The position numbers were made by a program. A DNA stretch of 64,000 nt from Sedimentisphaerales bacterium (GTDB taxonomy: Bacteria > Planctomycetota > Phycisphaerae > Sedimentisphaerales > SM23-30), in contig CAXXFK010000013.1 in assembly GCA_963663965.2 (NCBI GenBank), forward strand, positions 128,001-192,000. The letters run 5' to 3'. Shown in pieces: positions 12,001 to 21,000 of this stretch (positions are counted from its first letter, which is position 1; each line of letters starts with the position of its first letter).

Positions 12001-15000
12001 AGATTTTTATCCGTTGGATGCGGCTGAGGAGGGGGAATTGGTTGGGAGTAATTTCGAGAGGAAGTATATCAAAGAGGGGCGGGAATTTTATAAAATGGCG
12101 CTGAGGAAAATATAATATAATCCCATAAAAAAGGTGATCGAATTCTGTATTAGTAGGGATTTGATCGTATGGGCGGATTCCTGATTATCTGAGGGATTAT
12201 CTGATACTGGCCTGATTGAGAGAGTCTCAAAAAATTTTATTGAGGCGTCCATAATTTGTTAACCCGTCTGAAATTGCGGGCAAGGTTCAAATGTGAACAT
12301 TGTGGTCGGGGTTCATAGAATCAAAGAGATGGTTTGTAAAACAGAAGAATTGTTTTTATAAGTTACGACCTGGTAATAAGATAAAAGAATTTGTCGAAAT
12401 AATTCTGTTTAAAAATCAGCTCAATTCATCATTAATAGTAAACGGATATTCTCTACTGATTTATAATGAAAATAGAACAAAGTCATAACCCTCCAAACGA
12501 TCAACACATAAAAGAGTTCGTGTCGTTGCTAACGGCCAGTCAGGCCCGGCTGTATTCGTATATTCTGTCTCTGTCGCCCAATTTTAACGAAGCTGACGAT
12601 CTTTTGCAGGAAACGACCAAATTGATGTGGGAGAAGTTTGGTGACTTTAAACCGGGAACGGATTTTATTGCGTGGGGAAAACGGATCGCTTATATTCTGG
12701 TTATGCAGCATTATCGTATCCGTAAGAAGGAGCAGGGCTTGTGTCTGCCGGAAAATCTGATTGAAACTTTGGAGCGAGAACAGCAAAAGCATTCGGACCG
12801 CACGATCGATTATCTGGTATTCTTAAAGGAGTGTATGAAGAAATTGAACCGGCAGGATCGCCGCTTGCTGCGTTTACGTTATCATGAAGAATGCAATGTG
12901 CGGGAGATCTCCAGCCGTTTTGGTTTTACGGTCCAGTATATTTACAAAAACATCTCCCGGATCCATCAGTTGTTGCTGGGATGCGTTCAGAAACGGATTT
13001 TGTTCCAGGAGCAACGCTAATGGAATTGGCAGAACCGATTAAAGTAGAGATTATGGATCTGACGATCTTATCGCTGGAAGGCCAGGTAACCCGAGAACAG
13101 TACCAGCGGTTGATTGATCTGCTGCAAATCGAACCGGCAGCGCGCGCGTATTATTTTCAGGTGTTGGCAATCAGCGAATCGGTGCGTAAACTGGACTGGG
13201 ATACTGAATTGTTGCGGTTGAGTGAGGGGGATCTCGAGAAATCAGGTGATTATTGGAAATTCTGGCAGAAGATGCTGGAGCGGGAACAAACCGCGCGGGC
13301 TTTGACGATTCCCCGGCCGTCTGAATCGGACCCAAAAGAAAGTCGGTCGGCCATCGTTGATATACCGGAAAAAGCCGGCCCGTATCGGGGTAACAATGGC
13401 ATACTGGCCGCGGCGGTCATTGGGCTGGCGCTGGTCTCGATGTTGCTGATCTACGATCGATTTACGGCATCCACCGGGACCTCGGCTGTGATAACCCGCA
13501 GTTTACAGGCAGTATGGGGTGAGACCAGAAAGTCGCTGCATGCAGGGGATCCTTTACCCGCAGAGCGGCTCACATTAAGAGAAGGTCTGGCTGAAATTCA
13601 ATTCGAGAATGGCGCGGAAGTGGTCCTGGAAGGTCCGGCCGAGATACGGGTATTGTCGGATAGCCGGATGTATTTGTATCATGGGAAGTTAACCGCCAAG
13701 GTGGGCCATGAGGCGCTGGGATTTGTGATTGATACTCCCAGTGGTAAAGTGCTGGACCTGGGAACGGAGTTTGGTGTTGGCGTAGATCTGGAGGAGCGTA
13801 CACAGGTCCATGTGTTCCGGGGTGAGGTGATGGTTTATCCGATGGATTCGAAGTCGAATTACCGGCTGGAGCCAGGCAAGGCCCGGTCCATCAGCCGGGA
13901 TGGCACGACGGCAGAAGTCGATTATGATCCGGTGACGTTTATCCGGGAAAAAGAGCTGACTGTCCAGCTGGCCGCACGGCAAGGGGATGACCGGGCCCGT
14001 TGGCGGGCGTTTGTGTACGACCAGCACCGGGATAAATCGTTGGTGGGACATTATTTCGATGAGCAGGATATCAAGCGGCCAGCTATGCTGCTGAACAGTG
14101 TTTATGGTGAAGGTGTTTCTCAACCGGGCGTTTTTGGTACGGAAGGGCGCAATAAGCCCGGATGGGTTCAGGGGCGCTGGCCGGGAGAAATGGCGGTACG
14201 ATTGGAGCGGGACAAACACCAATCGATTGTCATTCCCGCGCAGGAACCGCTTTCGTTGCATGGTCCGATTACGATTGCCGCCTGGATTTACTATCCCAAC
14301 GAAAAACAGATGGGCGGCCATCTGATTTCCTGTCGACAGGATAATGATGTTAATTATCAATATTCGATATTTGACAGTCATTACAGTGTTTCCGAACAGC
14401 AGAATCGATTTGAATTCCTGCGATATGAAGATGACGTGCAGAATCGATCGTACAGCAAGGTGTTTTATCAGCAGCCGAACACCTGGTATTATTTTTGCGC
14501 CACGCATGATAACGAAACTTTAAAGTTTTACGTGAATGGCGAATTATTTGACTTATCGTCCTATGCCAGCCAGGTCGCGCCCCTGACCGCTGAGATCGTT
14601 ATCGGATCGATGAAACGGGAAGGGCGTTATGTGATGACCCAAGGCGATTTTGACGGCATTATCGATGATCTGATGTTATTTGACCGTTGTTTGACGGATG
14701 TTGAGATCAAGGCATTTTATGAAGCCGGGAAACCGATTTCCGGCGATTAATATTAACTTATTATAGTGGAGGTTACTGAGATGAATAACCGAAGGACCAG
14801 AATGTTTCTCTGTTTTGCACTCCTGCTAGCTATCAGTCTGGCACAGGGGGCATTGACTAAAATAGACGATTTCGAAAGCTACGCGTTAGGACGAGTCGAT
14901 GAAGTGACCGGCGGCAACTGGAAAGGGATTACGAGCAATACCGGTTTTGCTTCGATCAACACCGATGACGCCGACGCGGCTAATCAGGTACTTCGATTAC

Positions 15001-18000: not shown

Positions 18001-21000
18001 GTCGCCGGAACAAACGAACTGTCCGGAGACCAGTGGGACGGGCTTTTTCTGTTATGGTATCGCGTGGGGGATTAATAACGGTCTGCTGGATGAGGCGACC
18101 TATGGACCGGTGGCGGAAAGGGCCTGGGACGCGTTGAAGGCGGCAGTGCGTGAGGATGGCCTGCTGGGCTGGGTGCAGCCGGTGGGTGCCGGACCGGCGG
18201 TGTCAACGGCAAATTCAACCCAGGTGTATGGTGTGGGCGCTTATCTGCTGGCGGGCAGTGAAATGCAGAAATATTACCATCGACAAGACGCTTCGGCGAT
18301 CGATTTTTATGATCGCTATGTTTCAGACGCCGGGCTTAGAGCCGTATGGCAGGATGGATCGGCAAACGGGACAACCGCCGAGATAACGCTGGGGAATTAT
18401 GGAGATCGTTTTATGGAATTAAGTTATCACAATGATCAAGCGCCCTGGCGGGCTGAAACGACTCTGGTGTTTGAGGCCGCACGTCATTTCAATGGCTGGT
18501 ATTATTTATCCTTGCAGGTTCGGGGAGATGCCGGTAACAGCGGAGAATCCGTTTATGTCAGTTTGGAAGATGCAGAGGGCGGGGTGGCGACCCAGATCAT
18601 GTCAGACCCTGCTGTTGTCCAGACCGCGGCCTGGACGGAGCTGGGATTTGCGCTGAGGGAATTTGCCGGGATCAATTTGAGCCGAATTGTCCGTCTGACA
18701 GTGGGGGTGGGGCAGCCTCAAGCCGTAACGAGCGGTGGATCGGGTATGATCCGAATCGACAGCATCCAGCTTGCGATGGAGCAATGCCGACCGACAGCTC
18801 TGGATTTTAACCAGGATTGCCGGGTGAACCTGGGGGATCTGGAAGTGATGGCCGGTCAATGGCAGGAGCGTTACGCGCAGATTGTCGAGCCGGAAGATCC
18901 GGGAACGGAGCATTTGAGCGCCTGGTGGGCGTTTGATGAAAGTGAAGGGGATCTGGCCTCCGACAGCAGCGGTCATGGATTGGTTGGCACTTTGTATGAC
19001 GGAGCGGTTATGGCGCCGGAATCCGGTAAAATTGGCGGGGCGGTTCGAATTTCGGGCAGCAGCAATACGGCCAGCCGGGTTGAGATTCCGGCTGATGCTT
19101 TGTCACTAAACGAATGTACGGTCGCCTTTTGGGTCCGGCCGGATCAAAATCAGGCGCCTTCAACGCGTTATCTGTTCGGGCATACCCGATTGAACAGCTG
19201 GGGGAATCGTATTCAGTTGTATATGGATAATGGTGATACCAATCTGGATCTGGGATTGGGTGGCTCCCATTCCGTTAAAACCGGTATTTATAACCTGCCG
19301 CGCGAGAGTTGGAGTCATATCGCGTTGAGCTGGGATGGAACGAATTATCAGGTCTATATCAATGGCCTGATAAAAGCCAGCGGCCCCTATAGCGTACTCA
19401 ATGAATTACAGGCAGTCGCTCATATTGGCAATGATGGGGGGAATGGTTTTTCCGGATCGAAGGTTGAGGCGTTTAACGGACTTATGGATGATGTCCGGAT
19501 ATACAACACCGTTCTGACCCAGCCGCAGGTTATGTATCTGGCCGAGACGCCGTTGCAAATCCAGATTGACCATCCGCGTCCGACCGATGTTTATCAGGAT
19601 GGCAAGATTGATGTGGACGATTTGAAGATTTTCATTGATGGCTGGGGTTTGGATACTCTGTGGCCTTGATATACACTCTTTGAACACCTGCCGGCAGACG
19701 ATTATGACTGGTAAATCAATGCGTTGATTTCATCGCAATGCAATTTGAAATGACGAGGATAGTCCGTGACCATGTCATTGAGGGAGATTTTCTGATCGAG
19801 CGCAGAAATCCAGATATGATCGAGTTTGTCTGGATCGATATTTCTGATCACGTGCATGATATGCAGGTGGCTGTATTTCCATAGTTGCACCAGATGATTC
19901 CAGTCTTCGTGTTGATAATTCTGGATCGCGATCCAGCGGTCGTTGTTGCCAAGGTTGGCATAATCGGGGTACCGGCAGGGACTGGGTTGATATTGCAAGT
20001 GGATGATGCGATGGGTATTGTTGGAAGCGGAGTCGATCATATGGCCGAGGATTTGTTTGATCGAACGGTTCTGGCCGTTTTTACGCTGGGAGATTACTTC
20101 TTCGGATAGCCCTTGTAAACGGGGTTCCCAATGTTGGATCAGATGAATCAGATCCCGGCAAATGGATTCATAACATTCCATAGTAACTCCTTTGGATGGA
20201 TAATAAAATGAGAGACTATTACTACCAATTATGTTAATGTCGCGAACACTGAAATCAAGGGTAATTTTGAGGTGTCAATCACTGACAAAAAAAGGCGCCC
20301 CCGGAATTACGGGGCGCCTGGTATCGAACCGTTTTGGCAGATTATCGATTTAAACTTTAAATTGTCCCACCAGCGAATTCAATTCTTTCGATAGTTGGGA
20401 TAGTTGAGAGCCGGCAACCTGGGTTTTAGAAGCGCCCCGGGCATTCTGCTGGGCGGAATTGTCGATCTGATCTATGCTCTGGGTAATTTCGCGGGCGACC
20501 AGAGAGGATTGTTCCACGCCGGAAGAAACCTGTTCGGCGGCCGAGGCGCTCTGGGCGACATTTTGAGCGATTTCCCGGGTGGTAATATTCTGTTCTTCGA
20601 CAGCGGAAGCGATTGCGCGCGAGACTTCGTTAACATTCTTAATCACCTCGCTGATCCGATTAATCGCTGTTACGGATTCGCCGCTGGAGGACTGGATTGC
20701 GGCAATTCGCTGACTGATATCTTCGGTGGCATCGGCCGTTTGACGTGCCAGTTCCTTGACTTCGTTGGCGACGACCGCGAACCCTTTGCCGGCATCCCCA
20801 GCGCGGGCGGCTTCGATGGTGGCGTTGAGCGCCAGCAGGTTGGTTTGTTCGGCGATATCCTGAATCACTTCGATGACTTTACCGATCTGGTCGGCGGCTG
20901 AGCCCAATTCATTCATTTTTTCATTACTGGAATTGGCCAGCGTATACGCTTCGTCGGCGACTTTGGATGCCTGTTCGGCGCTGCGAGCGATTTCGTTAAC

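Follow-up and report, generated by a model that had tools for sequence, protein, structure and literature searches.

Predicted FecR-type anti-sigma factors with apparently exchangeable carbohydrate-binding-type sensor domains beside genes for secreted proteins in a Sedimentisphaerales bacterium

The window, a stretch of 64,000 nucleotides from a Sedimentisphaerales bacterium, contains at positions 12466..19669 four genes, all on the plus strand, in the order sigma factor, anti-sigma-like ORF, Ig and LamG protein, GH88 and LamG protein. The first gene (12466..13020) encodes an ECF46-like ECF sigma factor of 184 aa with Pfam Sigma70_r2 and Sigma70_r4 domains, scoring 140 bits against TIGR02989, the Rhodopirellula/Verrucomicrobium family (cut-off 124.55). 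The second (13020..14750) encodes a FecR-type anti-sigma factor of 576 aa, identified by Pfam, hydropathy, a structure model and a fold search. The longest ORF of this gene starts at 12891. The ATG at 13020 is the likely start, because the sigma stop codon overlaps it as TAATG and an AGGAG is located 8 nt upstream.

The anti-sigma factor is composed of a cytoplasmic head, one membrane helix, a FecR beta-solenoid (residues 188-270) and a C-terminal LamG domain. The head (residues 1-91; 13020..13292), predicted to bind sigma from structure and complex models, was modelled as a three-helix bundle (6-19, 25-37 and 39-57; pLDDT >90) with further helices. Hydropathy located the membrane helix at residues 126-150 (13395..13469), which are also helical in the model. 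A putative self-cleavage site, Gly248-Thr249 (13761..13766), lies in the motif D-x-G-T-x-F and is invariant in the family alignment. The LamG or concanavalin-like sensor domain (residues 400-564; 14217..14711) matched PF13385 with E=5e-20 and was modelled with low confidence.

The third gene (14781..16991, alternative start GTG at 14766) encodes a secreted non-catalytic partner, described by Pfam and a C-terminal motif scan, with a signal peptide, a variable N-terminal domain, Ig, LamG and a C-terminal dockerin-like Cys motif. Its N-terminal domain had no Pfam match, and the structure atlas gave leads only. A terminator-like 15-pair hairpin with a T-rich tail, recognised solely by pattern match, separates this gene from the next (17006..17043). 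The fourth gene (17186..19669, alternative start TTG at 17141) encodes a secreted unsaturated-glycuronyl hydrolase (Pfam GH88, PF07470, E=8e-75) with LamG and the same C-terminal Cys motif as the partner. Its best PDB match was the unsaturated rhamnoglycuronyl hydrolase 4ce7 (E=7e-64), and we take the enzyme to be GH105-like.

The anti-sigma factor belongs to a family of 33 ORFs in this genome, set off by a sharp gap from the next match (E<1e-50 versus 5e-5). The family of an earlier note on this DNA is thus real, with one member more than the 32 counted there, and its gene order and single-pass topology (30 and 31 of 32) also recurred. The end of an ECF sigma gene adjoins 31 ORFs, and 32 when L022 is added, in which the sigma gene precedes a frameshifted N-terminus; the exception, L031, is a near-copy of L015. 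Frameshifts or early stops occur in the assembled sequence of L007, L022 and L028. TIGR02989 was the best NCBIfam match of all 32 cognate sigma factors, 26 of them above the cut-off. One hydrophobic window above 1.7 was present in 32 of the 33 proteins. At E<=0.01 Pfam detected FecR in 31 (23 above the cut-off), LamG in eight (seven above) and NPCBM in 17 (13 above). By type of C-terminal sensor, an enlarged CBM51 is commonest (22/33), ahead of LamG-type (8) and other domains (3).

The sigma factors probably belong to ECF46, as far as TIGR02989 membership indicates; ECF59, which is kinase-linked, was ruled out as their group. The ECF46 passage of Casas-Pastor et al. 2021 (PMC7826278) describes a group from Planctomycetes, Verrucomicrobia and Proteobacteria, with a one-helix anti-sigma factor at position +1 that typically contains FecR and Laminin_G_3, with genes for a rhamnosidase and sulfatases nearby and no promoter conserved group-wide. 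According to the same passage these anti-sigma factors "might be sensing carbohydrates", as proposed in the periplasm. Novelty was therefore overstated in the earlier note, since the architecture and the carbohydrate-sensing idea were already there. The present loci share the position at +1 (32/33) and the single helix (32/33); the FecR and Laminin_G_3 combination is found in the window locus and in eight of the 33, and CBM51 takes its place in 22. That passage does not mention CBM51/NPCBM sensors, copy-number expansion, a conserved secreted partner, sensor swapping, fusions, the self-cleavage motif or a clade-level promoter motif. It also treats FecR as the anti-sigma domain, whereas here FecR is located beyond the membrane helix, and it is a distinct N-terminal head that is predicted to bind sigma. 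The head-sigma model, the head tracking the sigma lineage, the fusions, the CBM51 sensors and sensor swapping are additions to that description.

The head and sigma factor gave a complex model score of 0.88, against 0.00 for the best of three controls, with contact agreement between runs of at least 86% and partner pLDDT of at least 75. The mark for this score is passed by 116 of 157 solved pairs and two of 215 mismatched pairs. Already solved sigma/anti-sigma structures may be the source of such a pass. The modelled interface covers sigma residues 30-41, 92-124 and 156-175. Together with the head fold, it appears to fit the Class I anti-sigma domain (ASDI: three-helix bundle, fourth helix, sigma2/sigma4 contacts). 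Against PDB profiles RsiW ranked on top for the head, at a non-significant E=0.17.

Head similarity followed sigma similarity (rho 0.29, p=2e-4, n=31) and FecR similarity did not (rho 0.056, p=0.27). Across six genomes with 127 pairs the correlations with sigma were 0.21 for the head and 0.095 for FecR, and nearest-sigma neighbours were in the top three for 40 of 55 directed pairs by head versus 15 by FecR. Physical linkage might also give rise to covariation of head and sigma. In five relatives a family anti-sigma gene follows the sigma gene at 109 of 111 loci, four of them in-frame fusions. The anti-sigma role that had been proposed is well supported by the complex model, the tracking of sigma by the head and these fusions, and the two proteins almost certainly form a pair in which the cytoplasmic head is predicted to hold the co-encoded sigma.

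The FecR region matched PupR (6ovk) and BDI_1681 in fold. Its Gly-Thr motif is kept in all 33 proteins and, outside this genome, in 104/109 and 79/80. Self-cleavage at Gly-Thr has been demonstrated for FecR and FoxR in the work described in passages of PMC12036975 and PMC11637429. Judged by the motif and its position in the domain, Gly248-Thr249 would be equivalent to FecR Gly181-Thr182, and by analogy the family proteins may cleave themselves in the same way. Helical head, single helix, periplasmic beta-solenoid and Gly-Thr motif are shared with the FecI/FecR/FecA and FoxI/FoxR/FoxA systems as presented in these passages. Unlike FecR and FoxR as described there, the family has a CBM-like domain in place of the STN-like C-terminal domain, and no cognate TonB-dependent transducer was found. 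The genome (94.6% complete) yielded no FecR_C match and no STN match over cut-off; its two TonB barrels and four TonB-receptor plugs are not among the scanned genes of the family loci. SusD was likewise without a match, in line with the earlier claim of a logic without SusC/SusD: the loci would act like a PUL regulator and yet are not SusCD PULs. M50 peptidases are encoded in the genome. Tat export as in FecR was rejected, a twin-arginine near the helix being present in just 10/32.

SigI/RsgI of Clostridium thermocellum is the closest functional analogue: the account in PMC10328401 gives several paralogous pairs with anti-sigma factors that end in differing CBMs, control polysaccharide enzymes and cleave themselves, a feature that the Gly-Thr motif suggests here. 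In that account sigma family and periplasmic domain are different, with Asn-Pro cleavage, compared with TIGR02989 sigmas and FecR here; the envelope is Gram-positive, the sensor lies outside the wall and nine pairs are present against 33. ECF240 (old ECF10) of Bacteroidetes PULs, as summarised in the material consulted, also includes many paralogous FecR-type pairs tied to carbohydrate scavenging.

The NPCBM-type region models as one CBM51, with Z 14.5 and rmsd 2.6 over 141 residues aligned to 2vmi and about 110 residues inserted relative to it. The top six hits of the fold search were all CBM51 or CBM51-bearing and the next match had Z 8.3. The nearly invariant His155 and the invariant Asp247 correspond in alignment to the His and Asp of CBM51, which are presumably ligand residues. 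Botulinum-toxin binding-domain fold hits and Pfam Toxin_R_bind_N hits were set aside as merely the shared concanavalin-like fold. LamG domains frequently bind proteins. A single CBM51 scaffold precedes clusters for very different glycans. By a sequence tree of the quick-search kind, sensors appear to have been exchanged between sigma lineages, and sigma and head to have stayed together; in that analysis the profile wrongly assigned L011 to CBM51. The sensors of L009, L011 and L018 had their best genome-wide match in a module of a protein of their own cluster (56, 56 and 75% identity), which ties the sensor to its cluster. Such copying is a minority event, with three of 11 non-CBM51 sensors here and one of 40 in relatives (L207, 40%). 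The borrowed modules had no Pfam match save a weak LamG in L009, that of L018 had no PDB sequence match, and the structure atlas yielded nothing beyond leads for them. The CBM51 fold and the copied sensors make glycan binding more plausible, and most members probably bind a glycan directly.

Glycan sensing like that of RsgI, built on a FecR chassis, is the best reading of these data and a reasonably probable one. Each locus would be an ECF46-type transmembrane switch, the strongly supported part being the head that holds the co-encoded sigma. As in FecR and FoxR, the periplasmic solenoid would cut itself at Gly-Thr, with the C-terminal half remaining attached and shielding the membrane half against proteases. 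By sequence and fold, a carbohydrate-binding-type domain replaces the STN-like domain with which FecR docks on its TonB-dependent receptor. An oligosaccharide reaching the periplasm would be bound by the sensor and the shielding half released; site-1 and RseP-type proteolysis would then free sigma, which would transcribe its own operon and the neighbouring secreted binding proteins and hydrolases. On comparative grounds sigma and head appear to be inherited as a block, with sensor and downstream cargo exchanged, at times by copying a module from a cluster protein.

The genes behind the pairs also bear on what the sensor contacts. The next gene encodes LamG at 21 of the 33 loci versus one of 33 random anchors (p=1e-7), close to the 22/32 given earlier, and carries the C-terminal secreted-protein motif at 27; of the 65 Ig-LamG cassette proteins encoded genome-wide, 32 have an anti-sigma gene no more than five genes away. 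These counts would suit a relay: the sensor would dock on the neighbouring secreted protein, or on an enzyme of the cluster, and that protein would bind the glycan and take the role of the TonB-dependent receptor. FecR-type proteins of known mechanism require a protein partner (passages of PMC12036975 and PMC11637429), and modules common to sensor and cluster proteins could bind each other. Such a relay is unlikely: CBM51 sensors did not covary with partners (rho -0.19 and -0.06, with little power at n=13), the next gene is an enzyme or unrelated gene at L014, L019, L027, L021 and L030, and the N-terminal domains of the partners are also found on enzymes encoded in the same cluster, as expected of substrate-targeting modules.

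A CAZyme, esterase or sulfatase occurs within the next five genes at 19 of 33 loci, on the same strand in 17 of the 19, versus six of 33 random anchors (p=0.002; five of 31 without anchors L062 and L063, which overlap test neighbourhoods and were retained). The linkage is enriched but weaker than the 28/32 counted earlier over six genes on either side. ECF46-type neighbours include GH78 (L014), GH106 (L028) and sulfatases (L007, L009, L016). At the remaining 14 loci (about 40%), the five genes that follow include neither a CAZyme nor a sulfatase. Other cargo includes secretin genes downstream of L021 and L030, phosphatase-like genes downstream of L005 and L009, and CotH/LTD and FAD-oxidoreductase genes. 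In the relative G001 galactose-oxidase-like secreted proteins were the commonest cargo seen, with few classical hydrolases among 34 downstream proteins scanned (ORFs over 1500 aa excluded). Prepilin-type genes did not mark the clusters (five of 33 loci, three of 33 controls). This variety would be expected of switches that serve large secreted surface proteins in general, with CAZymes merely as the commonest cargo here, a rather improbable reading given the CAZyme enrichment, carbohydrate-binding folds in nearly all sensors and many unannotated cargo proteins that may be undescribed CAZymes. The varied inputs named for such switches are glycans, own exopolysaccharide, surfaces, phosphate esters and envelope state.

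Four paralogous sigma factors, those of the L003/L009/L018/L023 clade, have one common promoter-like motif upstream, TGTGTRAWW-N15-16-RTTR. This clade motif lies directly before the sigma operons in 7/7, and one further strong site precedes a gene for a secreted protein that is not linked to them. The claim of one degradation cluster per pair goes too far because of this sharing, the 14 loci without CAZyme or sulfatase, the two with secretin genes and the cargo of G001. A family-wide motif search reached an EM score of 300 (122-130 in shuffles); this motif was not established, with a held-out median AT-matched percentile of 0.61 (p=0.036) and an equally high reverse strand. Sigma segments did not covary with the motif core, and no motif shared with other family sigmas was found for the sigma of the window. 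Dispersed, overlapping regulons, with adjacency due to co-insertion in variable islands rich in glycan genes, would agree with the unlinked site, the shared motif, IS elements in several clusters, the hairpin before the window's hydrolase and the unconserved ECF46 promoters in the passage of PMC7826278, but are very improbable in view of the 7/7 placement and the own-cluster-copied sensors. Control of the adjacent secreted genes by the sigma/anti-sigma pair is likely.

Comparable expansions were found across the order Sedimentisphaerales, and the version with CBM51 is also present in a record from a cultured Anaerohalosphaeraceae. Among Planctomycetota, glycoside hydrolases are reported to be most diverse in this order (bioRxiv 10.1101/2024.01.10.575047); in the available text of two comparative papers on the group, this one included, the word 'sigma' is absent. 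Glycan sensing by an RsgI-like logic leads to a broader proposal that we hold tentatively, at somewhat under even chances: Sedimentisphaerales and some Pirellulales would control polysaccharide use by dozens of FecR switches that work without a receptor, with a self-cleaving solenoid and an exchangeable glycan-binding domain, and new specificities would arise by recombination of sigma-head and sensor, sometimes by copying the substrate-targeting module of the enzyme to be induced. If true, this would be an RsgI logic that evolved independently in a diderm phylum, and a natural collection of programmable glycan sensors. If the pairs are the switches, every one of them connects a sensor with a cluster and would help to assign substrates to many unannotated secreted modules and enzymes; they would also demonstrate FecR solenoid signalling without TonB and provide modular parts for glycan biosensors. 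The exchangeable sensors may thus offer a route to how these little-studied anaerobes choose the polysaccharide they digest.

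An ECF sigma gene in the window (12466–13020, + strand) is followed on the same strand by genes for a FecR- and LamG-containing membrane protein of 576 aa (13020–14750), a secreted Ig-LamG protein (14781–16991) and a GH88-family hydrolase with LamG (17186–19669). The stop codon of the sigma gene and the start codon of the anti-sigma gene overlap in TAATG; a ribosome-binding site lies 8 nt upstream of this start. A 15-pair hairpin precedes the hydrolase gene, which therefore may require its own promoter. About 18 kb from the locus lies a PL11 rhamnogalacturonan lyase (38204–40114, +), whose unsaturated products would suit a GH88/105 hydrolase. 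BLAST and profile searches of our own ORF set of the genome yielded 33 family members, all with E<1e-50 (next match 5e-5). A sigma end adjoins 31 of them and in locus L022 the sigma sits ahead of a frameshift, in line with the 32 members and 30 upstream sigmas counted in the earlier note. No sigma was found for L031, a near-copy of L015; this duplicate is recent (N-terminal domains of the partner proteins, encoded next after the anti-sigma, 98% identical), and the sigma was lost on the L031 side, where a repeated AT-rich stretch lies upstream. TIGR02989 was the top match for all 32 cognate sigmas, 26 of which exceed the cut-off. A single hydrophobic window was present in 32/33 members, and L007, L022 and L028 are interrupted.

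The cytoplasmic head (residues 1–100) has no Pfam match, a gap in the earlier case for sigma binding. It was predicted as a three-helix bundle (pLDDT >90), and the complex model of the window sigma with the head scored 0.88 against 0.00 for the best control, the runs sharing at least 86% of contacts with a partner pLDDT of at least 75. In calibration, the mark was reached by 116/157 solved and 2/215 mismatched pairs. As solved sigma/anti-sigma complexes exist, this pass may reflect likeness only; the top PDB match of the head profile, the RsiW anti-sigma domain, was non-significant (E=0.17). Similarity of heads was correlated with that of sigmas (rho 0.29, p=2e-4, n=31), and for the FecR domain no correlation was found among this genome's pairs (rho 0.056, p=0.27). 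Over 127 pairs from six genomes, the correlations were 0.21 for the head and 0.095 for the FecR domain. For sigmas with a neighbour of ≥47% identity, the neighbour's head ranked in the top three in 40/55 directed pairs, many of them reciprocal, against 15/55 for the FecR domain. Physical linkage could add to this covariation. In five relatives, 109/111 loci with room have a family member behind the sigma, and the relative G042 encodes four in-frame sigma–anti-sigma fusions of ~720–770 aa (L177, L181, L184, L185) with CBM51 or LamG sensors. The complex model, covariation, fusions and pairing uphold the anti-sigma role proposed earlier, the head being a predicted anti-sigma domain.

The middle part is a FecR solenoid, whose model has BDI_1681 and PupR as its closest fold matches. 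D-x-G-T-x-F occurs in 33/33 members here and in 104/109 and 79/80 elsewhere. According to passages of two reports (PMC12036975, PMC11637429), FecR and FoxR cleave themselves at Gly181/Thr182 and Gly191/Thr192, and the C-terminal fragment remains bound, preventing further proteolysis until a TonB-dependent receptor takes it off. From the motif and its position, we infer that the family would share this site. The receptor side of the FecR system is missing: the genome (94.6% complete, 5.4% contaminated) has no FecR_C, SusD or STN above cut-off, and two TonB barrels and four plugs genome-wide compare with 33 anti-sigmas, in agreement with a logic lacking SusC/SusD. M50 peptidases do occur.

The C-terminal sensors comprise a main class of 21 plus the split L028, eight of LamG type and three others. 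The main class was modelled (pLDDT 83) as one CBM51 carrying large insertions; the fold matches 2vmi (Z 14.5, rmsd 2.6, 141 aligned), with six CBM51-bearing entries on top and the next at Z 8.3. A nearly invariant His and an invariant Asp align with the CBM51 His and Asp, which we take to be galactose-binding. At least 558 stretches across GTDB genomes encode this sensor type; the best 80 of these are all titled Planctomycetota and all lie in FecR anti-sigma frames, with a sigma upstream or fused in 68 of the 76 with room, two being fused frames (L197:3920–6211, L200:202–2481). Sensor class is scattered over the sigma tree, a quick tree in which L011 is mislabelled (16 changes against a shuffled mean of 17.3, at least six forced by well-supported branches). 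The L003, L009, L018 and L023 sigmas are 56–67% identical, yet their sensors and cargo, the genes downstream of the pair, differ. In genome G067, the closest relative of the window sigma (55% identity, support 98) is paired with a similar head but with a CBM51 sensor, and GH51 and GH127 genes lie downstream of it.

Three sensors closely copy a module found on a protein of their own cluster, in each case the best match genome-wide: that of L009 is 56% identical to a module of a metallophosphoesterase-like protein, that of L011 56% to a module of the next two secreted proteins, and that of L018 75% to the module at the C-terminus of a PL8-like lyase. Such copies would be expected were the sensor to recognise the substrate of the cluster; alternatively, they may reflect interaction between like modules. 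Borrowed sensors are a minority, 3/11 non-CBM51 sensors here and 1/40 in relatives (40 of 48 available compared, 33 of them ordinary LamG).

Cargo was compared with the next five genes of 33 random anchor genes, scanned alike (145 test and 137 control proteins). LamG was found in the next gene at 21/33 loci against 1/33 anchors (p=1e-7), confirming the earlier 22/32, and a glycoside hydrolase, lyase, esterase or sulfatase in the next five genes at 19/33 against 6/33 (p=0.002), with the enzyme on the opposite strand at two of the 19. The CAZyme linkage is therefore real, yet 14/33 loci have no annotated CAZyme within five genes, so that the claim of cluster-heading pairs holds in part; its count of 28/32 followed a wider rule. 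Coherent clusters were seen for pectin (L003), xylan (L027), rhamnogalacturonan (L028) and sulfatases (L007). The cargo of CAZyme-less loci includes secretins and phosphatase-like, CotH/LTD and FAD-dependent proteins. At L021:11936–14242 and L030:2173–7587, the pairs are followed by secretin genes instead of glycan genes (one secretin gene is broken into two ORFs), which may point to a connection with an outer-membrane pore. IS66 or ISL3 transposases lie within clusters L012, L015 and L026.

The next gene's product ends in a dockerin-like Cys motif at 27/33 loci. With our own profile, this motif was found in 267/5349 genes, at most 30 aa from the end in 204 of them, and is possibly a sorting or anchoring signal. 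In the window it occurs at the C-termini encoded at 16991, 19669, 24663 and 41356, the third being that of a secreted C10 peptidase of 1608 aa (24663–29489, −) that also contains an I69 inhibitor and PMP-like repeats. Also in the window, a BlaI-type repressor (55951–56364, +) precedes a BlaR1/M56 peptidase frame (56401–64000, +), which is still open at the end of the window and measures at least 2533 aa. The full Ig-LamG-motif cassette is present in 65 proteins, 32 of them within five genes of an anti-sigma. Partner N-terminal domains differ widely (median identity 18%) and recur on same-cluster enzymes, e.g. three sulfatase frames in L007 (34–51%); partner and sensor showed no covariation (n=13). 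We read the partners as putative surface binding proteins.

The motif TGTGTRAWW-N15-16-RTTR lies upstream of one sigma clade at 7/7 loci in four genomes, against 2/128 other sigma loci and 11/4459 genes; its first box was derived from this genome before comparison with three foreign sequences, and the spacer was fitted later. It suggests autoregulation and cross-talk inside the clade; for the family as a whole, no shared motif is established. The promoter-like motif of the L003 clade has a strong match at G000:C34:10693 (+), 281 nt upstream of a secreted gene whose first domain is 44% like the L009 sensor, a candidate unlinked target.

Across the order, 15/60 other genomes, single-contig genomes included, have 14–36 TIGR02989 matches and 34/60 none. 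In the relative G001 the sensors are of LamG type and the cargo seen is often galactose-oxidase-like, so linkage to glycoside hydrolases differs among genomes; large Kelch proteins of this kind recur downstream of pairs L224, L232, L234, L236, L239 and L240.

The earlier note's idea of carbohydrate-sensing anti-sigmas is not new, as the catalogue text on ECF46 already proposes it for FecR and LamG proteins in its group description (PMC7826278). RsgI of C. thermocellum is an experimentally studied analogue, as portrayed in sections of PMC10328401. A full-text search (ECF46; anti-sigma or FecR with Planctomycetota, Sedimentisphaerales or polysaccharide), with subscription papers largely outside its scope, returned no study of such systems. 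The family is thus well supported as real sigma/anti-sigma pairs of a catalogued type. To this type the analysis adds the CBM51 sensor, the retention of the cleavage motif where the receptor is missing, the exchange and copying of sensors, the fusions and the promoter of one clade, and these render the putative glycan sensing testable.
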